28,515 bases of DNA from Eubacteriales bacterium (lineage in GTDB: Bacteria > Bacillota > Clostridia > Acetivibrionales > STF1-152). The stretch lies in contig JAQVNH010000001.1 of the NCBI GenBank assembly GCA_028703215.1, positions 1 through 28,515 of the forward strand, in the 5' to 3' direction. Below the pieces are notes generated by a model. The model worked only from the letters and a program-made list of their open reading frames with translations, was not told where the DNA came from and did not search any database. This document shows positions 3-12,826 of the stretch, piece after piece (the first letter of the stretch is position 1; every line of letters begins with the position of its first letter). The position numbers and the translations under genes were made by a program.

Positions 3-1580
3 GTTATAGAAATGCTGAACATTACAAAGCAATTTCCCGGTATCAAAGCAAACGACAACATAACACTGCGCCTGAAAAAGGGTGAGATACACGCCCTGCT
101 CGGCGAGAACGGCGCTGGGAAAAGCACGCTGATGAGTATTCTTTTCGGGCTGTATCAGCCCGAATCCGGCACTATCAAAAAGAACGGCGAGATTGTAAGA
201 ATAAACAATCCGAATGACGCAAATGCATTGCATATCGGAATGGTACATCAGCATTTCATGCTGGTTGAAGTATTTACGGTACTCGATAATATTATTTTAG
301 GAGTTGAACCAAATCAGTTTGGATTTCTTAAGAAGAAAGAAGCCAGGCAGAGAATTATCGATCTCAGTAAAAAATACGGCCTGAGCGTTGAGCCGGATGC
401 CTTGATTGAAGATATTTCGGTCGGGATGCAGCAACGCGTTGAAATACTCAAAATGCTTTATCGTGATAATGAGATCCTGATATTCGATGAACCGACAGCA
501 GTTCTCACTCCCCAGGAAATTATGGAGCTCATGGGCATAATGCGCGGACTGACTGCCGAAGGCAAGTCGATTCTTTTTATAACCCACAAACTGAATGAAA
601 TAATGGATGTGGCAGACAGATGCACGGTGCTCAGGAAAGGCAGATATGTCGGCACCGTTGATGTCAAGAACACGACAAAGGAAGAGTTGTCGAGGATGAT
701 GGTCGGGAGGGATATTCAATTTACCGTTGACAAGGAAGATATAATACCCGGCAAAGTCGTTCTCAATGTCGAAAACGTCACAGTCCCGTCAAAACTTCAT
801 AAAAACAACGCCGTCAAAAATGTCTCATTCGAAGTACGCTCCGGAGAAATACTATGCCTGGCAGGAATAGAAGGCAACGGGCAAAGCGAATTCGTTTACG
901 GCCTGACCGGGATGGAAAAACTCAGCGGCGGTAAAATCACTCTTAATGGAGAAGATATTACAAAGGCAAGCATCCGAAGCCGTTCAAAGGCCGGAATCAG
1001 CCATATACCCGAAGACAGGCACAAGTACGGACTCGTGCTTGATTACACCCTGGCTCAAAATCTGGTGCTTCAGCGATATTGGGAACCCAAATTTCAAAAT
1101 GCAGGTTTTATTAATGAATCTGCGGTTTTGGAATATGCGGAGAATTTGATCGGGCAATACGACATTCGAAGCGGTCAGGGAGCAGCTACAGTAACCCGCA
1201 GCATGTCGGGCGGAAATCAGCAAAAAGCTATCGTCGCAAGGGAAATCGACAAGAATCCCGAGCTGCTTGTGGCGATACAACCGACAAGGGGTCTTGATGT
1301 AGGTGCTGTCGAGTATATCCACAATAAGATAGTTGCTCAGCGCGATGCCGGAAAAGCGGTGCTTCTTGTTTCCCTCGAACTCGATGAGGTAATGAATGTG
1401 TCTGACAGGATTCTAGTGATGTTTGAGGGTGAAATAGTCGGAGAATTCGATCCGAAAACCGCAACCGTTGAGGAAATCGGACTTTATATGGCGGGTGCAA
1501 AGCAGAAAACTCACGCATTATCCTCAGCGCCCCCAGATGCGGCTCCAATAATGACTGACTCGGAGGCGGGCAAATTATGA
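3..1580 (+). CDS. Nucleoside/sugar (CUT2, NupA/YufO-like) ABC transporter ATP-binding protein; true start probably lies a few codons left of the window
   Basis: Two fused ABC domains: Walker A GENGAGKS, Walker B ILIFDEPT, degenerate second Walker A GIEGNGQS, signature SMSGGNQQK. The frame is open to the window edge (gtt ata gaa atg = V-I-E-M), so ATG at 12 is likely internal. ATGA overlap with the next gene. Confidence 0.9.
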   Translation, partial: VIEMLNITKQFPGIKANDNITLRLKKGEIHALLGENGAGKSTLMSILFGLYQPESGTIKKNGEIVRINNPNDANALHIGMVHQHFMLVEVFTVLDNIILGVEPNQFGFLKKKEARQRIIDLSKKYGLSVEPDALIEDISVGMQQRVEILKMLYRDNEILIFDEPTAVLTPQEIMELMGIMRGLTAEGKSILFITHKLNEIMDVADRCTVLRKGRYVGTVDVKNTTKEELSRMMVGRDIQFTVDKEDIIPGKVVLNVENVTVPSKLHKNNAVKNVSFEVRSGEILCLAGIEGNGQSEFVYGLTGMEKLSGGKITLNGEDITKASIRSRSKAGISHIPEDRHKYGLVLDYTLAQNLVLQRYWEPKFQNAGFINESAVLEYAENLIGQYDIRSGQGAATVTRSMSGGNQQKAIVAREIDKNPELLVAIQPTRGLDVGAVEYIHNKIVAQRDAGKAVLLVSLELDEVMNVSDRILVMFEGEIVGEFDPKTATVEEIGLYMAGAKQKTHALSSAPPDAAPIMTDSEAGKL

Positions 1581-2707
1581 AGAAGATAAAAAAAAGATTC
1601 TTTCAAAACGCAGGCTTTGCGAGTTTTTTATCATCCCTCACGGCAATCGGAATAGGTTTGATTTTTGGCCTGGTATTGCTGCTGCTCTTTAACCCGGCAA
1701 AAGCTTTTAACGGTTTTAGCCAGATATTGTTTGCGGGCGCAAGCACAATGGCAAAATTCGCCAAGGTTTTATACCAGGCTGCGCCCCTTATAATGACAGG
1801 TCTGTCAGTCGGCTTTGCTTTTAAAACAGGCTTATTTAATATCGGAGCCTCAGGACAATATCTCATGGGAGCATTCTTTGCGCTGTTCACAGGGATCGTT
1901 CTTAAACAGCCATGGTGGGTGGCCTTGTTCTCAGCAATGATGGGCGGGGCTTTGTGGGGAGCAATGCCGGGCATATTCAAGGCCTTTTTCAATGTGAATG
2001 AGGTTATTACATCGATAATGTTCAACTGGATAGGCTTATTTGCCGTAAATCTGACTCTCTCGAATATCCCGAGCATTCTGGCTAATTACTACGGCGCTTC
2101 CAGCGCAGAAAGAACCGCAGTTTTAGGAGCTGCTAATCCTTCTGCGATGATTCCGAAAATGGGGCTCGATAAAATATTCGGCGCTTCTTATATCAATATC
2201 AGTATTTTCCTTACGATTTTGATCGCAGTCATCGCGTATATTGTTCTTAATAAAACCACATTCGGGTATGAGCTCAAAGCTTGCGGATATAACCGGAATG
2301 CCAGCATCTATGCCGGTATCAACGCAAAGCGCAATATAGTTTTTTCCATGGTTATAGCAGGCGCATTTTCGGGAATTGGCGGCGGAGTTTACTACCTAAG
2401 CGGTACGGCGCAGTACACCATTGAGAAGATTCTCCAGGCAATGGGCTTTAACGGGATACCTGTCGCGCTGCTGGCAACTTCAAATCCTCTTGGCACGATC
2501 TTAAGTGCTTTGTTTGTTTCATATATTCAGGTTGGCGGAGAGGCAATGCAGCCTGAATTTGCAAAGGAAATTATCGATATCATCATTTCGGTCATTATCT
2601 ACCTTAGTGCTTTCTCGCTCTTATTCAAAGGGCTGATAACTAAGTTTTTGAGTAAGAACAAACCCGAATATGCGGATGAGGAGGAAAGCGGGGAGGTGGC
2701 GTCATGA
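1577..2707 (+). CDS. Nucleoside ABC transporter permease (NupB/YufP-like)
   Basis: Polytopic hydrophobic protein with motifs GLFNIGASGQ, VNEVITSIMFNWI and GYELKACGYNRNASIYAGIN; overlaps both neighbours by 4 bp. Confidence 0.88.
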   Translation: MKKIKKRFFQNAGFASFLSSLTAIGIGLIFGLVLLLLFNPAKAFNGFSQILFAGASTMAKFAKVLYQAAPLIMTGLSVGFAFKTGLFNIGASGQYLMGAFFALFTGIVLKQPWWVALFSAMMGGALWGAMPGIFKAFFNVNEVITSIMFNWIGLFAVNLTLSNIPSILANYYGASSAERTAVLGAANPSAMIPKMGLDKIFGASYINISIFLTILIAVIAYIVLNKTTFGYELKACGYNRNASIYAGINAKRNIVFSMVIAGAFSGIGGGVYYLSGTAQYTIEKILQAMGFNGIPVALLATSNPLGTILSALFVSYIQVGGEAMQPEFAKEIIDIIISVIIYLSAFSLLFKGLITKFLSKNKPEYADEEESGEVAS

Positions 2708-3696
2708 TAGTCCTTGCAGATATTTTAAGCGCAACGCTGATTTTTGCAATACCCTTGCTTCTGGTAGCGCTGGGCGGCATGTTCAGCGAACGGAGCGGCA
2801 CCGTCAACATAGCGCTTGAAGGTATCATGATCATAGGCGCGCTATCCAGCTCTCTTTATCTCAAATTCGCAAATACATCCGGATTCGGCGCTGCCAATCC
2901 CCAGCTTGCGATGCTGATCGCAGTTATTGTGGCGGCATTTTCCGGTGTCATATACGCCCTGCTGCTCGCTTTTGCGGCAGTGAGCCTTAGAGCGGACCAG
3001 ACCATCGGCGGCACAGCGCTTAATATGCTTGCGCCTGCGTTTGCCATAGTTCTGACATGGGCTATACAAGGCCAGGGGCAAACCACGATATATATTCCGA
3101 CATGGATAAGAATAACCCCGGAAGCGTTTGGGCTTGCAAGAAGCCAGAACCCGGCTTTTTTTGAAGCGCTGATATTCAAGAACTTTTACCTTACAACGCC
3201 GATAGCCTTTTTACTTCTTGCGGTTGCCGTCATCCTGCTATATAAAACCAAATTCGGCCTGCGTCTCCGTTCTTGCGGCGAACATCCGCAAGCCGCGGAT
3301 TCCGTGGGAATAAACGTCTATAAAATACGGTATGTCGGCGTTATGATGTCCGGTTTTCTTGCAGGTATCGGCGGACTCGCGTATACTATAGCTGCCGGCT
3401 CCGGATTTCAGTCAACTGTTTCAGGGTATGGCTTCCTGGCATTGGCTGTAATGATTTTCGGCAACTGGAAACCTGTCAGGATCTTCGGCGCAGCTATGTT
3501 TTTTGCGCTTTTCAAGGTGATAGGCTCATACAGCGGGAGTTTATCCTTCCTGCCGAGTTTTTCAGGGATCAAGAATTCTCAGTATATATACCAAATGCTC
3601 CCCTATATCGTGACGATGATTGTTCTGGTATTCACATCCGGCAAGTCCCGTGCCCCCAAGGCCGAAGGCATTCCGTATGATAAAAGCAAAAGGTGA
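2704..3696 (+). CDS. Nucleoside ABC transporter permease (NupC/YufQ-like)
   Basis: Motifs GGMFSERSGTVNIALEG, GLRLRSCGEHPQAADSVGIN and GFLALAVMIFGNWKP; C-terminal APKAEGIPY typical of this family. Confidence 0.88.
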   Translation: MIVLADILSATLIFAIPLLLVALGGMFSERSGTVNIALEGIMIIGALSSSLYLKFANTSGFGAANPQLAMLIAVIVAAFSGVIYALLLAFAAVSLRADQTIGGTALNMLAPAFAIVLTWAIQGQGQTTIYIPTWIRITPEAFGLARSQNPAFFEALIFKNFYLTTPIAFLLLAVAVILLYKTKFGLRLRSCGEHPQAADSVGINVYKIRYVGVMMSGFLAGIGGLAYTIAAGSGFQSTVSGYGFLALAVMIFGNWKPVRIFGAAMFFALFKVIGSYSGSLSFLPSFSGIKNSQYIYQMLPYIVTMIVLVFTSGKSRAPKAEGIPYDKSKR

Positions 3697-3861
3697 GCGA
3701 TGATATTCGATTTTGTGCCGGGTATGAAAAGCAATTCTCCGCAAGCGAGAAAATAAATTCCCGGATTCAGGAAAAGTAATTTGTCTGTATGCAGGAAAAC
3801 ATATGATCAGGAAGGCGAATTGGCTTCACGCAAGAAAACTAAATTGACCGGGGAGAAACTT

Positions 3862-4461
3862 ATGGCAAAATTATACTATAAATACGGCGCTATGGGCAGC
3901 AGCAAGAGCGCGCAGGCTCTGATAGCCAAGTTCAACTACGAAGAGCGCGGCATGAGGGTGTGGCTGATCAAACCCTCTGCCGACACGCGCGACGGAGAAA
4001 TAATGATCCGGTCACGCATAGGTCTTGAATCCCCGGCAGAAAAAATCACCCCGGAAACGAATTTGCTTGCCCGTTTCAAAGAACTTTATCCGCTTAAATT
4101 GGATGTTGTCATTGCCGATGAATGCCAGTTTTTTGAACCCGCTCATATTGACGCTCTGCGGACGATCGTTGACGATTACTCAACGCCTGTGCTTTGTTTC
4201 GGTCTTCGTACAGATTTTCTGACCCATCTTTTCCCCGGAAGCAGACGTCTTTTCGAACTGGCTGACTCTATCTCGGAACTCAAAACAATATGCGAATGCG
4301 GCAGTAAAGCTACTGTGAATGCGCGCTACGGGACTGATGGTAAAATAATCACGAGAGGCGAGCAGGTATATCTGGGGGGCAATGAGAGCTACATCGCAAT
4401 GTGTCATAAATGCTGGAGGAATAAAATAAAAGAGCAGACGGAAAACGAGGGAAAATCTTGA
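3862..4461 (+). CDS. tdk: Thymidine kinase (type II), 199 aa
   Basis: P-loop YGAMGSSKS, Walker B IADECQF, GLRTDF motif, zinc site CECG...CHKC. Start placed at ATG 3862 because GGGAG lies at 3851-3855; the track's TTG at 3781 has no homologous N-terminus. Confidence 0.93.
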   Translation: MAKLYYKYGAMGSSKSAQALIAKFNYEERGMRVWLIKPSADTRDGEIMIRSRIGLESPAEKITPETNLLARFKELYPLKLDVVIADECQFFEPAHIDALRTIVDDYSTPVLCFGLRTDFLTHLFPGSRRLFELADSISELKTICECGSKATVNARYGTDGKIITRGEQVYLGGNESYIAMCHKCWRNKIKEQTENEGKS

Positions 4462-4478
4462 AATAATAGGAGAAAACA

Positions 4479-5147
4479 ATGGATATAAAAGAAATTTTAA
4501 GCAAGGTAGATCACACCAACCTGGTTCCCGGCGCGACCTGGACTGACATCAAATCTCTTTGTGATGAAGGCATTGAATACGGTTGCGCAAGCGTGTGCAT
4601 CCCCCCATCTTTCGTCAGGAAAGCAAGCGAATATGTAAGCGGATCTCTTAAAATATGCACAGTAATAGGATTTCCGAACGGTTACAGCGCTACTGCCGTA
4701 AAATGCTTTGAAACTGAGCAGGCAGTGCGCGATGGAGCCGATGAGATCGACATGGTCATCAATAACGGCATGGTAAAAAGCGGCAGATACAAGGAAATCC
4801 TCGAAGAAATCAAAGCAGTCCGTTGTTCCTGCGGCAACAGAATATTGAAGGTCATAGCAGAGGCCTGCCTTCTTACCTATGAGGAAAAAGTAAAAATTTG
4901 CGAAATCGTATCTGCTTCAGGCGCGGATTTTATCAAGACATCAACGGGCTTTTCTACCGGCGGGGCTACTCGAGAGGATGTAAGGTTGTTCCGCGAAAAG
5001 ATCGCGCCTCATGTTAAAATCAAAGCTGCGGGCGGAATAAGAAGTCTCGCCGATGCGGAGGATTTTATAAGACTTGGCGCAGAAAGGCTCGGAACCAGTT
5101 CGATCGTAAAAATAGTCAAGGGGATGGGCGCCTCGCAATCATATTAA
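4479..5147 (+). CDS. deoC: Deoxyribose-phosphate aldolase
   Basis: Motifs VDHTNL, VIGFPNG, DEIDMVIN, LKVIAE, FIKTSTGF (Schiff-base Lys) and IKAAGGIR; AGGAG RBS upstream. Confidence 0.95.
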   Translation: MDIKEILSKVDHTNLVPGATWTDIKSLCDEGIEYGCASVCIPPSFVRKASEYVSGSLKICTVIGFPNGYSATAVKCFETEQAVRDGADEIDMVINNGMVKSGRYKEILEEIKAVRCSCGNRILKVIAEACLLTYEEKVKICEIVSASGADFIKTSTGFSTGGATREDVRLFREKIAPHVKIKAAGGIRSLADAEDFIRLGAERLGTSSIVKIVKGMGASQSY

Positions 5148-5164
5148 AAAAGACAGGTGAAACC

Positions 5165-5572
5165 ATGGAACATAAAAAGCTTGTAAAATCAGCCATACAG
5201 GCAATGGCAGGAGCATATGTGCCATATTCCGGATTCAAGGTCGGCGCTGCTCTGCTTACGAAAAGCGGAAAAGTCTACACCGGATGTAATATTGAAAACG
5301 CGGCTTTTTCTCCCTCAAATTGCGCCGAGCGAACCGCTTTTTTCAAGGCTGTCAGCGAAGGGGAAAAGGAATTTGCCGCAATTGCGATTGTCGGCGGCCT
5401 TGAAGGCAAAATCAAGGAATACTGCCCCCCCTGCGGTGTTTGCAGACAAGTGATGAGTGAATTTTGTGCTGATGATTTCATTATCATACTCGGCAAGGAA
5501 GATGACGAATATAAAAGCTATACACTTGCCGAGCTTCTGCCGTTAAGGTTTTCAGAAAAAGATATCAGGTAA
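5165..5572 (+). CDS. cdd: Cytidine deaminase (homotetrameric type)
   Basis: AYVPYSGFKVGAAL, GCNIENA, CAERTA and PCGVCRQ zinc motifs. Confidence 0.95.
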   Translation: MEHKKLVKSAIQAMAGAYVPYSGFKVGAALLTKSGKVYTGCNIENAAFSPSNCAERTAFFKAVSEGEKEFAAIAIVGGLEGKIKEYCPPCGVCRQVMSEFCADDFIIILGKEDDEYKSYTLAELLPLRFSEKDIR

Positions 5573-5600: not shown

Positions 5601-5632
5601 AAAAAAGCGGACGATTTCTGTCCGCTTTTTTT
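5601..5632. terminator. Bidirectional intrinsic terminator between convergent cdd and the LarA-like gene
   Basis: aaaaaa-GCGGAC-gatttct-GTCCGC-ttttttt: perfect 6-bp GC-rich stem flanked by an A-tract and a T-tract. Confidence 0.85.
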
Positions 5633-6896
5633 ATTCTGCGATCCAAAGTCCAAGTGCCGGGTTGCTTATGTAAAATATCCTCTCTCCGCTTTCAAGAGTA
5701 TTGTACCCGTCCTTAAGCTTCGACGGATCATATTTCACGATCGTCTTATCATAGGGAGCATATTTATAATATACGCTTTCGATCTCTTCTTTGGAAATAT
5801 TTTGGGCGGCATAGGTTATACTGAACCTTCCGTCCGAAGATCCGTGTATCAGATGTGCCGCTACCGAAAGATTATTTTTCAGATCTTCTTTTTCGCTGAC
5901 AAGTTTGAGTACTTTTTCACGTCCCGCATAGCCATATTTTCTGATAAGCCTGTCGTTTTCAGGATCTTCGCCAAACTTCTTTATGCCCGGGGCAAGAACA
6001 ATAAGCTCACCGCCTGTTTTGATGGCCATCCTGGTCCTGTAAACCGCTTTATTCCCGAGCCATGTGCTTTTGAACTCCTTTTCGTCAAGTAAAACAACAA
6101 CCTTTTCAAATGGTTCGCTTACATAAATCAGATTTTTCTTTTGACTGAGCTTGACTGCCTCCTCAAATATTTTGCGCTTCCGCCCCGCAAACAAACCGTG
6201 GATAACTGCTCTGCCGTGTTCTGCGGTAGTTACTGTCAGAACGTACATCAGAGGGATTTCCGCCAGGAAGTACTCTTCGGCGTAGTCGAATACCTTCCGG
6301 ACAGGCGAATGGTCCTTCCCCATTATCCGCTCCATTCCGTAAAAGGCGCCAAGCATATGCGAGCTGTTGATCATGCTGCTTCCGCCGCATCCTACAAATA
6401 CATTCTTACTGTAGTTTGCCATTCCCACAACTTCGTGAGGAACAACCTGTCCGATCGAAATTATAAGATCGTATATCGGATCAAGAATGCGTTTGTTCAA
6501 TTCCACATCTATGCAATTATTGACCAGACCCTCGGATATTTCACAGACATATTCCGCGGGCACTTCTCCGATCTTCACGACATCTGTTTTCCAGTTATGG
6601 ACAATGAATCTGTCCAAAGGGATTTTATCTCCGTACATTTCTCTGATTTCCGGTTCGGACATGGGGTCATGTGTGCCAAGCGCCGGAAGTATGTCGACAA
6701 CGCAATCGGTTTTTAACATTTCATAATACATGGCCGTTATCTTTCCGGCCTGCGAATGAAATCTTGTGAAATCCGGAGGGATAAGCAGCACTTTTTTGAG
6801 AGGTCCCTTATCTGAAAGCGATTCCTTGAGACGCTTTCTCAGCTCTATATCGCTTATTCCCTTTGCGGTAGTTGCTTTTACATAAATTTCGCCCAT
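5631..6896 (-). CDS. LarA-superfamily (DUF2088) nickel-pincer-dependent 2-hydroxyacid epimerase; probable D-mannonate/D-gluconate 2-epimerase (GntE-like)
   Basis: LarA-like motifs in order: PDFTR (Asp/Arg), ALGTH (catalytic His), PHEVVGMANYSKN (His plus cofactor Lys), NSSH (Ni-ligand His), LGNKA (second Lys). RBS AGGAAGGAG. Substrate is inferred from the uxuB/gnd context. Confidence 0.75.
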   Translation of the reverse strand: MGEIYVKATTAKGISDIELRKRLKESLSDKGPLKKVLLIPPDFTRFHSQAGKITAMYYEMLKTDCVVDILPALGTHDPMSEPEIREMYGDKIPLDRFIVHNWKTDVVKIGEVPAEYVCEISEGLVNNCIDVELNKRILDPIYDLIISIGQVVPHEVVGMANYSKNVFVGCGGSSMINSSHMLGAFYGMERIMGKDHSPVRKVFDYAEEYFLAEIPLMYVLTVTTAEHGRAVIHGLFAGRKRKIFEEAVKLSQKKNLIYVSEPFEKVVVLLDEKEFKSTWLGNKAVYRTRMAIKTGGELIVLAPGIKKFGEDPENDRLIRKYGYAGREKVLKLVSEKEDLKNNLSVAAHLIHGSSDGRFSITYAAQNISKEEIESVYYKYAPYDKTIVKYDPSKLKDGYNTLESGERIFYISNPALGLWIAE

Positions 6897-6936
6897 ATTG
6901 ACTCCTTCCTGACTTTTTTGCTCAAATCAATGGATA

Positions 6937-8388
6937 TCAAGCCGTATATGTCGTTGAAGCGGTGCCCCCGCCAAGTCCTGCCCAGTCAGTATGAAAAAAC
7001 TCGCCTCTCGGCTTGTCTGTTCTTTCATATGTGTGAGCCCCGAAATAGTCGCGCTGCGCCTGAAGCAGATTTGCCGGAAGCCGGTCATTTCTGTAGCCGT
7101 CAAAGTAGCAAAGAGCTGTCGTAAAGGCAGGCACCCAGATACCGTTCGTCATAGCTGTTGAAACGACTCTTCTCCACCCTTCCTGGGCAGCTTCTATTTT
7201 GTCCTTGAAGAAGTCATCAAGAAGAAGGTTCTCAAGACCCGGATTTTTATCAAACGCTTCCTTTATCTTGCCCAGGAACACCGACCGTATGATGCATCCG
7301 CCTCTCCACATCAAAGCTACTCCGCCGTAGTTGAGATTCCAGCCGTATGTTTTTGCCGCTGCCCTCATGAGTGTGTACCCCTGGGCATAAGACACGATTT
7401 TTGAGGCATAAAGCGCTTCCCGGATATCTTCGACAAAAGCCTTCTTATCACCTGTAAATTTGGGCTTTGGTCCTTTTAATATCCCGGACGCTTTGACTCT
7501 TTCCTCTTTCATAGCTGACAGACAGCGGGCGAAAACAGCTTCTCCGATAAGTGTCAATGGTATCCCCTCATCGAGTGCGGCTACGGCCGTCCATTTCCCG
7601 GTGCCCTTTTGTCCGGCTGTGTCCAGTATTTTATCTATCAGATAACCTCCGTCATTATCCTTGTAAGCAAGAATGTCCCGCGATATCTCTATAAGGTAGC
7701 TGTTAAGATTTCCTTTGTTCCATTCGCTGAAAACCTCATGCATTTCGTCGTTGCTCATCCCCAAAAGATCCTTCATGAGCTGGTATGCCTCGCATATAAG
7801 CTGCATGTCGCCGTATTCGATACCGTTATGCACCATTTTTACAAAATGGCCGGCTCCGTTTTCTCCCACCCATTCGCAGCACGGGGAACCGTCCTCGACT
7901 TTTACGCTAATACCCTGAAAAATCGGTCTGACATGAGCCCATGCCGCCGGAGAACCTCCCGGCATCATGCTCGGCCCCCTCAGCGCTCCCTCTTCTCCCC
8001 CTGAGACTCCGGTCCCAACGTAAAGAAGCCCTTTGCTCTCAACATATTCCGTTCTGCGTATCGTGTCCGGGAAGTGGGAATTTCCGCCGTCGATTATTAT
8101 GTCTCCCGCTTCAAGATAGGGAAGGAGCTTTTCAATGAAATCATCAACAGGCTTGCCTGCCTTGACCATCAGCATTACTTTCCTGGGTCTCTCAAGCGAG
8201 CCGACCAGTTCCTCTATCGAAAAAGCTCCGATTATATTTTTCCCGGCCGCGCGGCCTTCAACAAATGCCTTCACCTTTTCGGTCGTGCGGTTATAAACAG
8301 CAACGGTAAAGCCCTTGCTCTCCATGTTCATGACCAGATTCTCGCCCATGACTGCAAGTCCTATAAGTCCGATATCAGCTTTTTTCAT
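6937..8388 (-). CDS. gnd: 6-phosphogluconate dehydrogenase, decarboxylating, NADP-dependent, 483 aa
   Basis: GLIGLAVMG Rossmann motif, YNRT (NADP-specific Arg), IIDGGNS, VSGGEEGA, VKMVHNGIEYG, QAQRDYFGAH. Start at ATG 8388 with GAGG RBS. Confidence 0.96.
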   Translation of the reverse strand: MKKADIGLIGLAVMGENLVMNMESKGFTVAVYNRTTEKVKAFVEGRAAGKNIIGAFSIEELVGSLERPRKVMLMVKAGKPVDDFIEKLLPYLEAGDIIIDGGNSHFPDTIRRTEYVESKGLLYVGTGVSGGEEGALRGPSMMPGGSPAAWAHVRPIFQGISVKVEDGSPCCEWVGENGAGHFVKMVHNGIEYGDMQLICEAYQLMKDLLGMSNDEMHEVFSEWNKGNLNSYLIEISRDILAYKDNDGGYLIDKILDTAGQKGTGKWTAVAALDEGIPLTLIGEAVFARCLSAMKEERVKASGILKGPKPKFTGDKKAFVEDIREALYASKIVSYAQGYTLMRAAAKTYGWNLNYGGVALMWRGGCIIRSVFLGKIKEAFDKNPGLENLLLDDFFKDKIEAAQEGWRRVVSTAMTNGIWVPAFTTALCYFDGYRNDRLPANLLQAQRDYFGAHTYERTDKPRGEFFHTDWAGLGGGTASTTYTA

Positions 8389-8396
8389 GATTTTCC

Positions 8397-9470
8397 TCAC
8401 CTTCTGACCCTGGCGTTTCCCCGCCAGATGTCCCATACTTGCTCTTCGTCCACAGGCACCGCATAGTCAGTCAGCATCGTGGTTGCAAGAGCTCCTGTCG
8501 CCCATCCGAAACGAAGCCATTTTTCAGGCTCCCAGCCCTTCAGTATCCCATATACGAGCCCTCCCACGAAACCGTCTCCGCCGCCGATTCGGTCAAGCAC
8601 AGGTATCTCGCGCGGTTCCTCGATATGCCATTTATCGCCCTCAAGCATTATTGCCCCCCAAACATGGCTGTTTGCGCTGACTACCTCGCGAAGCGTTGTG
8701 GCAAATACCGAAGCTCCTGGGTACTGAGCCTTTACTCTGCGTATCATTTCCTTAAAGCTCCCGGTTTTTGCAGAAAGGTCTTTTCCTCCCGCCTCCGGAC
8801 CCTCTATGCCCAAAGCAAGCTGAAAATCCTCTTCGTTTCCTACAAGAATATCCGCACGTCCTGCGATCTGCCGGAATGTATCGCTCAATTCCTCTTCTCT
8901 GCCCTTCCAGAAAGAAGCTCTGTAATTCAGGTCAAAACAAACAAGCGTCCCGTTTTGTTTTGCTATCCTCGAAAGCTCAAGGCACACAGCTCCGTTCTCC
9001 GGGGACATTGCCGCAAATAAGCCCGACATGTGAACGATCGCTACGCCTTCCCGCGCGAAGATTTTCTCGAGGTCAAAATCAGTGACTTCCAATGTCTTTC
9101 CAACTTCTCCGGCGCGGTCATTATGAACTCTTGGCCCCCTCATCCCGAATCCGCTGTCAGCGATATTGAACTGATGCCTGTATCCCCAGGGCCCGCCCTG
9201 CGGGACGTCCCTTCCCTCAAACTCAAGATTCCTCTTCCTCATCTCATCCTTGATAAATTGAGAAATCGGGCTGTCCTTGACAAATCTTGTCAGAATTTTT
9301 ACTCTCATCCCGAGCGACGCCGGGATATTCCCGACATTGCTTTCTGCGCTTGTCGCGTGCATGAAATAAGTGTTGCTGACATGCACCGGCTGTCTTTCTG
9401 CAGGTGTGATCCGGACACCCATGCTGGTCGGAATGACCATGGCGTATTTGTAATTTTCTTTTAATTTCAT
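8397..9470 (-). CDS. PfkB/ribokinase-family sugar-acid kinase (KdgK-related but atypical N-terminus)
   Basis: C-terminal anion hole DRIGGGDGF, DLNYRASFW, GNEEDF and N-DRA motif typical of KdgK-like kinases. The N-terminal substrate region reads TSMGVRITP and TSAESNV instead of GE..LRL and GGAEANV. Confidence 0.8.
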   Translation of the reverse strand: MKLKENYKYAMVIPTSMGVRITPAERQPVHVSNTYFMHATSAESNVGNIPASLGMRVKILTRFVKDSPISQFIKDEMRKRNLEFEGRDVPQGGPWGYRHQFNIADSGFGMRGPRVHNDRAGEVGKTLEVTDFDLEKIFAREGVAIVHMSGLFAAMSPENGAVCLELSRIAKQNGTLVCFDLNYRASFWKGREEELSDTFRQIAGRADILVGNEEDFQLALGIEGPEAGGKDLSAKTGSFKEMIRRVKAQYPGASVFATTLREVVSANSHVWGAIMLEGDKWHIEEPREIPVLDRIGGGDGFVGGLVYGILKGWEPEKWLRFGWATGALATTMLTDYAVPVDEEQVWDIWRGNARVRR

Positions 9471-9533
9471 GTCGATATCCTATCCTTTGTTATGTATTTT
9501 AATCGATCAACTTACAATTGCTATATTGATATG

Positions 9534-9562
9534 ATTATATAATATTAAATCTGTTGTTTCAT
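9534..9562 (-). promoter_or_regulatory. Putative sigma-A promoter of the kinase-gnd-epimerase operon
   Basis: Minus strand ATGAAA (9562-9557), 17-bp spacer, TATAAT (9539-9534), in an AT-rich divergent intergenic region. Confidence 0.45.
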
Positions 9563-9603
9563 CTCTTTTTTGCTGTTTTTGCTCTCGGTTTATTCAAAAT
9601 CGT

Positions 9604-9633
9604 TTGCTCCGGATCATTTATTCGTTGTATAAT
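9604..9633 (+). promoter_or_regulatory. Putative sigma-A promoter of uxuB
   Basis: TTGCTC (9604-9609), 18-bp spacer, TATAAT (9628-9633), 35 bp before the start codon. Confidence 0.5.
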
Positions 9634-9668
9634 GTGGTCACACACTTGTGTTTTTAGGGGGTTTGGAT

Positions 9669-11285
9669 ATGAAACTTTCTGCAATCAAGATTGGCGATGA
9701 CCGTGAATGGATCGATAAAGGATATGGACTTGTGAAATTTGACAGGGACTCCGTTATAAAGAACACCTCTGAAAATCCTGAGTGGGTTCATTTCGGCCCC
9801 GGCAACATTTTCAGATCCTTCATCGCCCTGCTTCAGCAGGAGCTGCTGGAAAGAGGTATCGAAAAGAAGGGTATTATAGTAGCCGAAGGATATGATCATG
9901 AGATCATAGAAAAAATTTATCGCCCCAAAAATAATTTATCGCTTGCCGTAACACTGCATGCCGACGGCTCGATCGACAAAACCGTTGTCGGAAGCATTAC
10001 TGAATCTCTTATAATGGATACGGAGCTTCCGGACTGGGAAAGGCTTAAACATATATTCAGGTCAGAAACACTTAAAATGGCAAGCTTCACCATCACTGAA
10101 AAGGGCTATAATCTCAAAAATCAGAACGGGGAATATTTCCCCTTTGTTCAAAGCGATCTTATCGGAGGACCGGCGAAGCCGCAGGGCTATATGGGCAAGG
10201 TCGCCGCTTTATGTTACGAAAGATATCTGGCCGGGAAGCTTCCGATTTCCTTTGTAAGCATGGACAACTGCTCGCACAATGGCACAAGGCTTTTTGAGGC
10301 GGTCGATACGATTTCCGGTGAATGGGAAAAAAGCGGTTTAGTCCGGGAAGGTTTCCGGGAATATGTCAACGATAAAAGCAAGGTCGGCTTCCCGTGGAGC
10401 ATGATTGATAAAATAACGCCGCGTCCCGATGAGAAGGTCGTTGAGATGCTTCGCGCGGACGGATTTGAGGACACCGATATCGTTGTGACTGCAAAGGGCA
10501 GTTATGTGGCGCCTTTTGTCAACGCAGAAGAAACGCAGTATCTTGTGATCGAAGAATGGTTCCCGAACGGGCGCCCGAAACTGGAAAAAGCCGGTGCAAT
10601 ATTTACCGACAGAACCACTGTCGAAAAGGTTGAAAAAATGAAGGTTTGCACCTGTTTGAACCCCCTTCACACAGCCCTTGCGATCTATGGCTGTCTGCTC
10701 GGGCACAAGCTGATCTGGGAGGAGATGAAGGATCCGGATCTTAAAAAAATGGTCGAGATCATCGGCTACAGGGAAGGTCTGCCTGTTGTTGTAGATCCCG
10801 GGATCATGGACCCCCGGGAATTTATCGATACAGTATTGAACGTTAGATTTCCGAATGTTTTTATGCCGGACTCGCCGCAAAGGATTGCAACCGATACCTC
10901 TCAAAAGCTGGCAATTCGCTTTGGAGAAACCATCAAAGCCTATCTTAAGAGTGATTCTCTGTCTGTAAAGGATCTTAAAATAATTCCGCTGGTCTTTGCG
11001 GGATGGTGCAGATATATACTGGGCGCTGATGACAGCGGATCACCGTTTACGCCAAGCGGAGACCCGCTTTTGGCAGATATCCGCAATCACCTTGGAGATA
11101 TACGTCTTGGAGATGCCGGAAGTTTTCACAAACAGCTTTATCCGATATTTTCCAATGCATCTATTTTTGGGGTTGACCTCTACGAATCCAGTCTTGGCGA
11201 GGTAGCTGAAGGCTATTTCTCAGAACTGGTCGCAGGTAAAGGCGCGGTAAGACGCACACTTAAGAAATATGTTTCTGAAGTGTAG
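9669..11285 (+). CDS. uxuB: Mannitol-dehydrogenase-family oxidoreductase, long type; probable D-fructuronate reductase / D-mannonate oxidoreductase, 538 aa
   Basis: WVHFGPGNIFRS nucleotide-binding motif, FTITEKGY, VSMDNCSHNG, WSMIDKITPRP, EKMKVCTCLNPLHT. Start at ATG 9669 after AGGGGG. Substrate is inferred from family and context. Confidence 0.75.
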   Translation: MKLSAIKIGDDREWIDKGYGLVKFDRDSVIKNTSENPEWVHFGPGNIFRSFIALLQQELLERGIEKKGIIVAEGYDHEIIEKIYRPKNNLSLAVTLHADGSIDKTVVGSITESLIMDTELPDWERLKHIFRSETLKMASFTITEKGYNLKNQNGEYFPFVQSDLIGGPAKPQGYMGKVAALCYERYLAGKLPISFVSMDNCSHNGTRLFEAVDTISGEWEKSGLVREGFREYVNDKSKVGFPWSMIDKITPRPDEKVVEMLRADGFEDTDIVVTAKGSYVAPFVNAEETQYLVIEEWFPNGRPKLEKAGAIFTDRTTVEKVEKMKVCTCLNPLHTALAIYGCLLGHKLIWEEMKDPDLKKMVEIIGYREGLPVVVDPGIMDPREFIDTVLNVRFPNVFMPDSPQRIATDTSQKLAIRFGETIKAYLKSDSLSVKDLKIIPLVFAGWCRYILGADDSGSPFTPSGDPLLADIRNHLGDIRLGDAGSFHKQLYPIFSNASIFGVDLYESSLGEVAEGYFSELVAGKGAVRRTLKKYVSEV

Positions 11286-11294
11286 CTGCGTAAA

Positions 11295-11651
11295 TCAATA
11301 AAGCTTTGTTTCTTCCTTTTGAACTTTTCTCAGCCATTCGCTGTCATGCGCGGGTTTCTGGTATTCCCACGTCCTTATCCATTCGTCCCATATTTCAGGC
11401 TGGGTGACAAACGTATCAAACTCGATTTCTATTTCTTTTGCCCGGATCGCGTCATTTGATGTCGAGGGGGCTATATCAAACATATTTATGGAACTGTAAT
11501 AAGTGAGTATCCTGAGAACAAAATCACTCAGGATCTCCGCGCTGTCTTCCTCTGGAGCCGATCCTTTCCCGGTCAGTTCCTTGTGCATCGAACGGCCGAT
11601 CTTGATTGCCATCCGTTTGTTGAATTCTTCGATATCATCCTTTATCGCCAT
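11295..11651 (-). CDS. Hypothetical protein, 118 aa, acidic and Trp-rich C-terminal half
   Basis: AGGAG RBS 7 nt before ATG; 36 bp downstream of the previous gene on the same strand; no recognisable family. Confidence 0.7.
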   Translation of the reverse strand: MAIKDDIEEFNKRMAIKIGRSMHKELTGKGSAPEEDSAEILSDFVLRILTYYSSINMFDIAPSTSNDAIRAKEIEIEFDTFVTQPEIWDEWIRTWEYQKPAHDSEWLRKVQKEETKLY

Positions 11652-11687
11652 TATGCATCTCCTAGTCTTTTGTATTTATAATTCAAA

Positions 11688-12803
11688 CTACCTCTTAAAA
11701 ATAAGATAAATTATTATAAATGCAAGTATAAATGCTGCCATAGTTCCCGCAACCTTCAGCAGACTGACCGGCGTTTCTCCCTGGACATTTCCGGTCTGTC
11801 CGTTTACCATAAACCTATAGATCTTCTTTTTATATGTGAATGCTGAGATCCAGACAGGCAGTAAAACGTGCTTGAATTTAATTGTTTTGCAAATCGTGTT
11901 GATGCTCAGATTCCTGACCTCATCGGCCCGGATTTGATCGATGACGCCCTTATAGATCTCTGAATCAACTTTTTTTCTCGCTTTCAGCCATCCTTCTTCG
12001 AGCCCTATGCCGTATCTTTCCGCTTGAAATCCCGAGAGGTATTCCGGTTTATAGAGAACAAGCTTTTTCATGTCAAAATTATGCAATTTGTTAATAATGT
12101 TTTCTTCTATGTTTTTTGACGCGTTGACCGGAATTTCATCAAAATATTCTGTATATACTCCGCTTGTCGGTCTCCATCGGATCTGCCTGACCTGCTTTGT
12201 AACCATTTGTTGTTTGCCGTTTACTTTCGCCCAGCCGTTTTGCGTTTCATAATAGTATTCTCCGGCTTCTCCCGAATATGCCGACCATGTGTCGGCGTCA
12301 TATGTCCAGAAAGGCACATAAACACCGTTGAGCCGAACCGCTTTGTGTTCTATTTTTACATCGCGCGGCGCGAAAAATTTGCCTTTCAGCCATTTGGAAT
12401 AATTTTCAGCCGCCTTTTTGAAACTTATCAGAAACGGTATCAGCGACTCCGGTGGAATACCTGCGGATTCTATGCTTTTTGTAACATGCGCGGATCCGCA
12501 AAAAGCGCACGACTGAGCAGTGTTGAATACATCAAGAACTGTTCCGGCTCCGCAGTTCTGACAATGCATCACTCTCGTTTCACTTCCCCAGTTTCCGGCG
12601 CTTGTATCCTTGGCTGTAAAGAAGTCGTGTTCCTCTATGTGTCCGTCCTTCGCTGCTATTTCAACGCTTTTTGAGCAATATCCGCATGTAAGTGTTTGTG
12701 TTTCCGGATTAAAAGTCATATTTGCGCCGCAGCTCGGGCAGGGAAAATTGTTTGTCTCTTCCCTTATTATCTGTTCCGGCTTATCGTTAATATCCTGTGT
12801 CAA
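11688..12803 (-). CDS. Zinc-ribbon membrane protein (YdjG-like) with C-terminal transmembrane helix
   Basis: Two four-Cys ribbons (CPSCG..CGYC, CQNCG..CAFCG), conserved-looking LPVWISAFTY and FMVNGQTGNVQG, hydrophobic C-terminal helix ending in KR. Start placed at TTG 12803, 7 nt from GGAGG (the track's GTG at 12809 abuts the RBS). Confidence 0.7.
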   Translation of the reverse strand: MTQDINDKPEQIIREETNNFPCPSCGANMTFNPETQTLTCGYCSKSVEIAAKDGHIEEHDFFTAKDTSAGNWGSETRVMHCQNCGAGTVLDVFNTAQSCAFCGSAHVTKSIESAGIPPESLIPFLISFKKAAENYSKWLKGKFFAPRDVKIEHKAVRLNGVYVPFWTYDADTWSAYSGEAGEYYYETQNGWAKVNGKQQMVTKQVRQIRWRPTSGVYTEYFDEIPVNASKNIEENIINKLHNFDMKKLVLYKPEYLSGFQAERYGIGLEEGWLKARKKVDSEIYKGVIDQIRADEVRNLSINTICKTIKFKHVLLPVWISAFTYKKKIYRFMVNGQTGNVQGETPVSLLKVAGTMAAFILAFIIIYLIFKR

Positions 12804-12826
12804 GGTCACCCCTCCGCTCAGCTCAT

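Follow-up and report, generated by a model that had tools for sequence, protein, structure and literature searches.

A LarA group-18 epimerase gene cluster and a probable UxuA-independent hexuronate route in a clostridial genome

Can hexuronates be carried into central metabolism without the mannonate dehydratase UxuA? The question is raised by four genes at positions 5631-11285 of contig JAQVNH010000001.1 (assembly GCA_028703215.1), from an Eubacteriales bacterium, of which the first 28,515 nt (hereafter the window) were analysed. A preliminary description of this DNA had named a fructuronate/mannonate oxidoreductase, a kinase, gnd and a LarA-family gene around a divergent region, with no uxuA or eda near them. 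Family models place all four genes there: a minus-strand trio encoding the LarA-family protein, 6-phosphogluconate dehydrogenase (Gnd) and a PfkB-family kinase faces a plus-strand gene for a long reductase of the mannitol dehydrogenase family. Neither uxuA nor eda is present in the window or was found in the assembly (1.2 Mb, 201 contigs, 88% complete). The route proposed at that time, from fructuronate through mannonate, gluconate and 6-phosphogluconate to ribulose-5-phosphate, gains support from the gene inventory, related loci and natural fusions. We consider it probable that the four genes make up the lower half of a UxuA-independent hexuronate route with the epimerase acting before the kinase, and we infer both this order and the substrates of all the window proteins.

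In such a route, glucuronate, freed by a glycoside hydrolase family 2 (GH2) beta-glucuronidase-like enzyme, and galacturonate would be isomerised by UxaC, tagaturonate would be converted by UxaE, and both branches would end at D-fructuronate, with the genes for these steps on other contigs. The long mannitol-dehydrogenase-family enzyme would convert fructuronate to D-mannonate, the LarA group-18 enzyme would invert C2 through a transient 2-keto intermediate to give D-gluconate, the PfkB kinase would phosphorylate C6 to yield 6-phosphogluconate, and Gnd would oxidise and decarboxylate this product to ribulose-5-phosphate, CO2 and NADPH; the nickel-pincer nucleotide (NPN) that loads the epimerase would be made by LarB, LarE and LarC. 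A search of the assembly for uxaC, uxaE, uxuA and larBCE, as the preliminary description had suggested, recovered a uxaC fragment, its final 97 codons, at the end of contig C59, uxaE on contig C128 (615 bits) and, on contig C130, a larE-larB-larC operon whose genes all exceed their NCBIfam cut-offs, and did not find uxuA. A GH2 fragment at the end of contig C53 is 61% identical to a beta-glucuronidase-like gene that adjoins the group-18 gene in Ruminiclostridium cellobioparum. UxaA, Eda (the 2-keto-3-deoxy-6-phosphogluconate aldolase) and Zwf were likewise not found in the 88%-complete assembly, nor were P-loop GntK and FGGY gluconokinase-like genes (E <= 1e-90), a second KdgK-like PfkB kinase (tblastn with the window kinase, E <= 1e-5), a second Gnd or a second long reductase (both by tblastn), or a D-mannonate oxidoreductase of the short-chain dehydrogenase/reductase (SDR) family (E <= 1e-40, and by tblastn). 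The same genome (G000) carries a second LarA-family gene (contig C169:6456-7718, L095), which scores 568 bits on the LarAH6-type malate racemase model (cut-off 500); the idea that LarBCE serves the group-18 epimerase alone was thus rejected, and the cofactor genes serve two enzymes. The neighbours of this LarAH6-type gene are rarA and a gene for a HisJ-type phosphatase, and no genes with an evident link to malate are close by.

The epimerase gene (5631..6896, minus strand, 421 aa), encoding a GntE-type NPN-dependent hexonate 2-epimerase of the LarA superfamily, matches NCBIfam model NF052594, 'nickel-dependent putative hexonate epimerase', at 645.7-646.1 bits (cut-off 500) over model positions 3-410/411. 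This model corresponds to LarA group 18 (LarAH18) of Desguin et al. 2020, listed in their Table S1 as 'putative hexonate epimerase' ('G2E3') in the context of an SDR, Gnd, a ribokinase-family kinase and UxaC (PMC7583248), and the window protein is like that group in passing the model cut-off, in its signature and in its gene context. The equivalents of the LarA catalytic residues D72, H108, H174 and K298 are D42, H76, H154 and K283, those of the NPN-binding residues R75, K184 and H200 are R45, K164 and H180, and the group-18 pocket signature (E V after the catalytic His; W L. N K; S. A A. L I H. S) is kept. Compared with Dataset S2 of that study, the protein agrees with group 18 at 19 of 19 catalytic, cofactor and pocket positions, and it differs from groups 19 and 20 at the equivalents of Q295, V297 and I362. 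The residues at these 19 positions (D R H H E V K H W L N K S A A L I H S) are shared by the window epimerase, Phytophthora homologues and 65 related loci and, rare variants aside (G for S at one position in four HAD-fused proteins), by all classes of fusion protein. The nearest, and by sequence only, solved relative is Thermotoga maritima GntE2 (TM0442, LarAH20; PDB 4NAR; E 2e-33, 119 bits), which, like GntE1 of C. glutamicum, has been shown experimentally to interconvert D-mannonate and D-gluconate (PMC7583248). A further relative, LarAH15 of Phytophthora nicotianae, is a narrow-spectrum GntE, a D-mannonate/D-gluconate epimerase with a Km of 9.4 mM and a kcat of 111 per s (PMC11770544). The P. 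infestans homologue was put in group 18 by the 2020 dataset of Desguin et al. (PMC7583248), and its counterpart in P. fragariae, which reaches 652 bits on NF052594, shares 50% identity with the window epimerase over its full length and begins with MTLLFAEG, which is the start encoded by primer LarAH15_A. Judging from this primer-encoded N-terminus and the congeneric homologues, LarAH15 would belong to group 18/NF052594, an assignment not stated in PMC11770544. LarAH15 has a measured activity, whereas that of the window epimerase, about 50% identical to the Phytophthora type, is predicted from LarAH15, GntE1 and GntE2 to be C2 epimerisation of D-mannonate and D-gluconate.

The company kept by group-18 genes elsewhere was surveyed at 73 related loci from species-representative genomes, with LarAH18 identities of 55-73%. 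In 37 of the 55 loci with enough flank, a gnd gene precedes LarAH18 on the same strand at a distance of at most 1.2 kb, and 49 of all 73 loci contain gnd. Orthologues of the window kinase (63-73% identity) occur at 18 loci, an FGGY gluconokinase-like gene at 6-10, an SDR passing the D-mannonate oxidoreductase model (452 bits, cut-off 281) at 20, uxaC at 7 and an AraC-type regulator at 8. Cultured bacteria with the same cluster include Ruminiclostridium cellobioparum and Thermoclostridium stercorarium. Where each flank measures 4 kb or more (33 loci), no two kinase types stand together at the thresholds used; looser clustering of open reading frames (ORFs) puts an FGGY and a PfkB kinase together at L063. 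A KdgK-type gene at L008, wrongly joined by ORF clustering, is excluded from the kinase orthologue set, and cluster c3, an artefact of antisense ORFs over gnd, was set aside. As to the co-occurrence that the preliminary description had thought worth surveying across Firmicutes, the group-18 epimerase gene is accompanied, in that phylum and outside it, by gnd, a kinase gene of the window type (or FGGY) and one for a fructuronate reductase. Apart from these partners, a gene pair for a pyrophosphate-dependent phosphofructokinase-like and a HAD protein stands upstream of gnd in loci without any sugar-acid kinase, and unrelated families of phosphatase type (HAD/Cof, histidine phosphatase and PHP) recur beside the epimerase or fused to it. 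These observations, together with the dihydrofolate reductase-like fusions listed below, concern loci L042, L044-L046 and L052 (as c14-c5-gnd), L027, L034 and L058 (c33) and L041, L057 and L069 (c38), and proteins P0006-P0020.

Whole-genome content was tabulated for the window's own genome and 25 genomes behind the loci, hand-picked so that variants of kinase, reductase and fusion were represented. Of these 26 genomes, 22 encode UxaC and 4 a full-length UxuA (at least 472 bits), 3 others having weaker partial matches to UxuA; 6 encode Zwf, and none of the 26 has P-loop GntK. With Zwf missing from 20 of the 26, Gnd there is without a feed from the oxidative pentose-phosphate branch. In two of the genomes an FGGY gluconokinase-like gene adjoins Eda (G023:C39:16006-18156 and G024:C12:6748-9048), both of which also have a PfkB kinase, and because of this adjacency the specificity of the FGGY clade, which scores about 450 bits against a gluconokinase cut-off of 648 bits, is uncertain.

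The reductase gene (plus strand, 9670..11285, about 540 aa; the ORF opens at a GTG at 9648) carries both PF01232 (Mannitol_dh) and PF08125 (Mannitol_dh_C) above their cut-offs. It falls below every NCBIfam cut-off (106 bits against 603 on the fructuronate reductase model NF011611), scores about equally on the models for D-arabinitol dehydrogenase, fructuronate reductase and tagaturonate reductase, and has distant solved relatives, at about 100 bits or less. Across the 26 genomes, long reductases at least 50% identical to it and the SDR D-mannonate oxidoreductase are nearly complementary: 10 genomes have only the long reductase, 12 only the SDR (one of these 12 SDR genes, truncated where its contig ends, falls just short of the cut-off), 2 both and 2 neither (Fisher p = 0.0011). 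The long reductase also adjoins uxuA in all three genomes with a true UxuA and a long reductase on one contig (G014, G021 and G022), which independently supports the view that it makes or uses D-mannonate. From this complementarity, the adjacency to uxuA and a fusion with LarAH18 described below, the window protein would be a UxuB-like fructuronate reductase/D-mannonate oxidoreductase. The low and even model scores would also suit another hexonate pair (altronate/allonate, idonate/gulonate or galactonate/talonate) as the substrates of epimerase and reductase, with an indirect link to Gnd. The NCBIfam name still reads 'putative hexonate epimerase', and Desguin et al. suspected a different substrate for group 19 (PMC7583248). 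We regard this explanation as very unlikely, however, since the neighbouring SDR passes the D-mannonate oxidoreductase model at 20 loci, the long reductase replaces that SDR across genomes and adjoins the mannonate dehydratase gene in three, and fusions of the epimerase with a gluconokinase exist. The canonical Gnd next door, moreover, makes 6-phosphogluconate the expected product, and no altronate dehydratase was found in the assembly, where the presence of UxaE leaves no need for an altronate branch.

The kinase gene (8397..9470, minus strand, 357 aa) encodes a PfkB-family sugar-acid kinase, a candidate gluconate (or mannonate) 6-kinase. It scores 66.8 bits on PF00294 (cut-off 25.8) and lies below every NCBIfam cut-off, the best models, of the KdgK type, giving 22-96 bits where the cut-offs stand at 400-440; among solved structures, the nearest is T. 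maritima KdgK (2afb, 117 bits). Orthologues of the window type (63-73% identity) are present in 19 of the 26 LarAH18-carrying genomes. A separate PfkB paralogue, 26-35% identical, adjoins Eda in at least 10 of the 26, and at least 6 genomes hold both kinds. In the alignment, the Eda-linked KdgK set keeps GE.MLRL, GGGE.NV and GG.-RLG.YY.E.GASQR, whereas the LarAH18-linked kinases have PTSMGVRITP, ATSAE(S/T)NV and GGPWGYRHQFNIADSGFG.RGPRV.NDRAGEVG instead, with a three-residue insertion; the catalytic motif DR(I/V)GGGD is kept in both sets, as DRIGGGDGF near the C-terminus of the window kinase. The window kinase thus departs from KdgK both in its lid and substrate motifs, which are replaced, and in its neighbours, which are Gnd and LarAH18 and not Eda. 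These motifs, the orthologue set of its own and the constant partnership with Gnd and the epimerase argue that it forms a separate orthologous group, remodelled relative to KdgK on the substrate side.

Could it nevertheless be a classical 2-keto-3-deoxygluconate (KDG) kinase of the Ashwell pathway, with Gnd a housekeeping enzyme, the clustering partly coincidental, and uxuA and eda hidden in the unassembled 12%? Its best relatives among structures and hidden Markov models are of the KdgK type, the assembly is incomplete, and most related genomes encode Eda. This is nonetheless the least credible of the explanations that we weighed, and a highly improbable one, given that at least six genomes hold a window-type kinase as well as a separate Eda-adjacent KdgK paralogue, that GE.MLRL and GGGE.NV have given way to PTSMGVRITP and ATSAE(S/T)NV with an insertion, that 8 nt separate the kinase stop from the gnd start, that Gnd is unfed by the oxidative pentose-phosphate branch in the 20 genomes without Zwf, and that full-length UxuA is confined to four genomes, with weaker partial matches in three more.

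Natural fusions of the epimerase were sought by querying a large collection of proteins with the epimerase part of one fused gene, so that the results concern long proteins, and the best 120 matches were considered. Among these, the commonest partner is a gluconokinase of the GntK/IdnK type (45 proteins); in the two such fusions that were scanned (P0035 and P0074) both domains exceed their cut-offs and the kinase part passes TIGR01313. Five of the 120 join Gnd to LarAH18 (P0001-P0005, about 900 aa each, from independent assemblies), and the domain architecture of one such gene, at L068, was confirmed as NAD_binding_2, 6PGD and Lar_N. Two join UxaE to LarAH18, and one (P0013) joins the long reductase to LarAH18, with a reductase part 68% identical to that of the window and gnd as the next gene. 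The partners from uronate pathways set the epimerase among UxaE, the reductase, gluconokinase and Gnd. The remaining partners among the best 120 matches are a dihydrofolate reductase-like domain (6), a Cof-type HAD phosphatase (4) and a PHP phosphoesterase (1). As a guide to the order of steps the fusions were rejected, for those with kinases fit both orders, those with Gnd favour phosphorylation before epimerisation, and the single reductase fusion favours the reverse.

The Gnd::LarAH18 fusions, of which no mention was found in the literature examined, were observed as ORFs at L068:8447-11164, L070:8465-11164, L066:1-2007 and L067:1-2436, in metagenome-assembled genomes of gut or chicken-faecal Clostridia. 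In two genomes with this fusion (G019 and G020), neither a PfkB kinase related to that of the window (E <= 1e-15) nor an FGGY gluconokinase-like gene (E <= 1e-90) nor a P-loop gluconokinase was found, and upstream of the fused gene these genomes carry genes for a GH2 protein, a PGM/PMM-like mutase, a DUF402 protein and a phosphoribosyl pyrophosphate (PRPP) synthetase-like protein.

Several observations weigh against the route as drawn above, or against its order of epimerase and then kinase. The nearest characterised relatives of the kinase are KDG kinases, and our literature search found no gluconate kinase of the PfkB family. Eda is encoded in 21 of the 25 related genomes, and the absence of Eda was for this reason rejected as a general hallmark of the route. 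No transporter or regulator lies within the cluster, and the absences from the window's own genome are provisional, because that genome is fragmented and 88% complete. The Km of GntE-type enzymes for free mannonate is high (9-120 mM), and the physiological substrate could be a different one, for example a phosphorylated one. Finally, the tight pairing of gnd with larAH18 and the Gnd::LarAH18 fusions would represent consecutive steps only if the epimerase acts on 6-phosphomannonate.

These last points would suit a different order, with the PfkB enzyme as a mannonate 6-kinase and the group-18 enzyme as a 6-phosphomannonate 2-epimerase handing 6-phosphogluconate to Gnd. It is the order shown in extracts of Lactobacillus suebicus, where mannonate is converted to 6-phosphomannonate, which interconverts with 6-phosphogluconate, and free mannonate is not converted to gluconate (PMC6978723). 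Those activities were described without genes; no later paper naming the genes of the kinase or of the 6-phosphomannonate epimerase was found, and the supplement of PMC6978723, to which this search was confined, held no LarA homologue of L. suebicus. Consecutive steps would suit the five protein clusters of Gnd::LarAH18 fusions and the dominant gnd-larAH18 adjacency, and the high Km of the characterised GntEs for free mannonate and the remodelled substrate-side motifs of the kinase also favour phosphorylation first. On the other side, LarAH15 of Phytophthora, with the same pocket signature, acts on free D-mannonate with a kcat of 111 per s; gluconokinases of the GntK/IdnK type, a family whose E. 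coli prototype does not use mannonate (cited in PMC6978723), are the commonest fusion partners; and one fusion joins the reductase straight to the epimerase. Nor is there a sign of phosphate binding in group 18, although this point is not decisive: its 19 published signature positions, to which the comparison was limited, include no added basic residue, and Ser stands where groups 19 and 20 have Arg. Taken together, phosphorylation ahead of epimerisation appears possible, if rather unlikely, and it is unlikely, too, that the Gnd::LarAH18 fusions mark a hand-over of 6-phosphogluconate by an epimerase acting on a phosphorylated sugar acid; if true, no earlier nickel-pincer enzyme would be known to act on such a substrate, and the PfkB specificity would be new as well. 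Epimerisation of free D-mannonate followed by phosphorylation of D-gluconate remains the order that we prefer.

Among known systems, the closest is the UxaR-regulated 'epimerase' branch for galacturonate in T. maritima (operon aldH-pelB-gnd-uxaRED-gntEK; Rodionova et al. 2012, PMC3750489). There, too, UxaC and UxaE lead to fructuronate and on to mannonate, and a nickel-pincer C2 epimerase, a kinase and Gnd lead to ribulose-5-phosphate; uxaC, uxaE and gnd are also in the genome studied here. The preliminary description had mentioned a Thermotoga route with other reductase and kinase families, and this is accurate, the enzymes being the SDR UxaD and the FGGY kinase GntK (PMC3750489), in contrast to the mannitol-dehydrogenase-family reductase (about 540 aa) and the PfkB kinase of the window. 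The epimerase belongs to group 18 here and to group 20 there, no UxaR-type regulator adjoins the present cluster, and the route is here apparently the sole exit for mannonate, whereas Thermotoga also has UxuA/KdgK/KdgA. The hybrid isomerase-phosphoketolase pathway of L. suebicus (Valk et al. 2020, PMC6978723) resembles the proposed route in reaching 6-phosphogluconate from mannonate without UxuA, in continuing through Gnd and in being redox-neutral, and differs in that the kinase precedes a 6-phosphomannonate 2-epimerase, that a phosphoketolase lies downstream and that it is known by activities, not sequences. The Ashwell isomerase pathway (UxaC-UxuB-UxuA-KdgK-Eda) shares UxaC and the fructuronate reductase step, and its kinase KdgK is a distant relative of the window kinase, which falls in a separate orthologous group; neither UxuA nor Eda was found in the genome studied here, and carbon would leave as ribulose-5-phosphate and CO2 rather than as pyruvate and glyceraldehyde-3-phosphate.

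Against this background, the suggestion of an undescribed variant holds in part. New relative to the Thermotoga system are a PfkB subfamily for the kinase step and a long mannitol-dehydrogenase subfamily for the reductase step, both of them uncharacterised, but the Thermotoga-type route itself, the gene context of group 18 (Desguin et al. 2020) and the family, which is curated and annotated by NCBI, were already known, and the novelty is modest. The claimed gain of NADPH stands as far as Gnd is concerned, which yields NADPH, and is offset by the NAD(P)H that the reductase consumes, so that the route is roughly redox-neutral (Valk et al., PMC6978723).

As to the layout of the locus, gnd (6937..8388, minus strand) encodes a canonical NADP-dependent decarboxylating 6-phosphogluconate dehydrogenase (TIGR00873, 778 bits, cut-off 427). 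Its ORF extends to 8436, and the start is most likely the ATG at 8388, with first letters MKKADIGLIGLAVMG and a ribosome-binding site, AGGTGAGG, in front of it, which gives a protein of 483 aa, the same as in homologues. Since this start is only 8 nt past the kinase stop, kinase and gnd appear to be translationally coupled; a gap of 40 nt separates the end of gnd from the epimerase gene. The reductase ORF as first called (9648-11285, 545 aa) most likely begins at the ATG at 9670, preceded by AGGGGG. Between kinase and reductase lies a divergent intergenic control region of about 200 bp (9471..9669), in which the features are consensus matches only: a promoter-like site at 9562-9534 on the minus strand, directed toward the kinase operon (ATGAAA-17-TATAAT, 10/12 matches), of a quality not commoner than in shuffled sequence, and a TATAAT at 9629-9634 pointing toward the reductase. 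No regulator gene adjoins the cluster.

The flanks are unrelated in function. On the left, the cluster abuts the nucleoside salvage genes tdk, deoC and cdd (3781-5572) and a sugar/nucleoside-type ABC transporter (12-3696), and at other loci MazG or PRPP-synthetase-like genes lie beside gnd-larAH18; these neighbours might point to a role of the route as a source of pentose phosphate for nucleotides where zwf is missing, but they may be a coincidence. To the right are genes without an assigned role, an SPFH protein gene and the pho regulon. Between the reductase and the SPFH/zinc-ribbon gene, positions 11295-12809 hold two ORFs of 118 and 373 aa with no Pfam or NCBIfam match, and a homologue of the 373-aa ORF (52% identity) occurs at the edge of locus L008.

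For the anaerobes that carry the group-18 epimerase, the route is probably the sole way to use glucuronate and galacturonate and the sole feed into Gnd, given that UxuA and Zwf were not found in most of their genomes. Plant xylan and pectin would be among the sources of uronate, as would host glucuronides and mucopolysaccharides, and the route would supply pentose phosphates and NADPH. It also helps to explain why a three-gene nickel-cofactor pathway is kept in a genome of about 1.2-1.4 Mb, where the LarAH6-type malate racemase uses the cofactor as well. Two enzyme subfamilies can now be named as candidates, a PfkB-type gluconate/mannonate kinase and a long mannitol-dehydrogenase-type fructuronate reductase, and for the conversion of pectin-rich feedstocks a redox-neutral path from uronates to ribulose-5-phosphate is of interest (PMC6978723).

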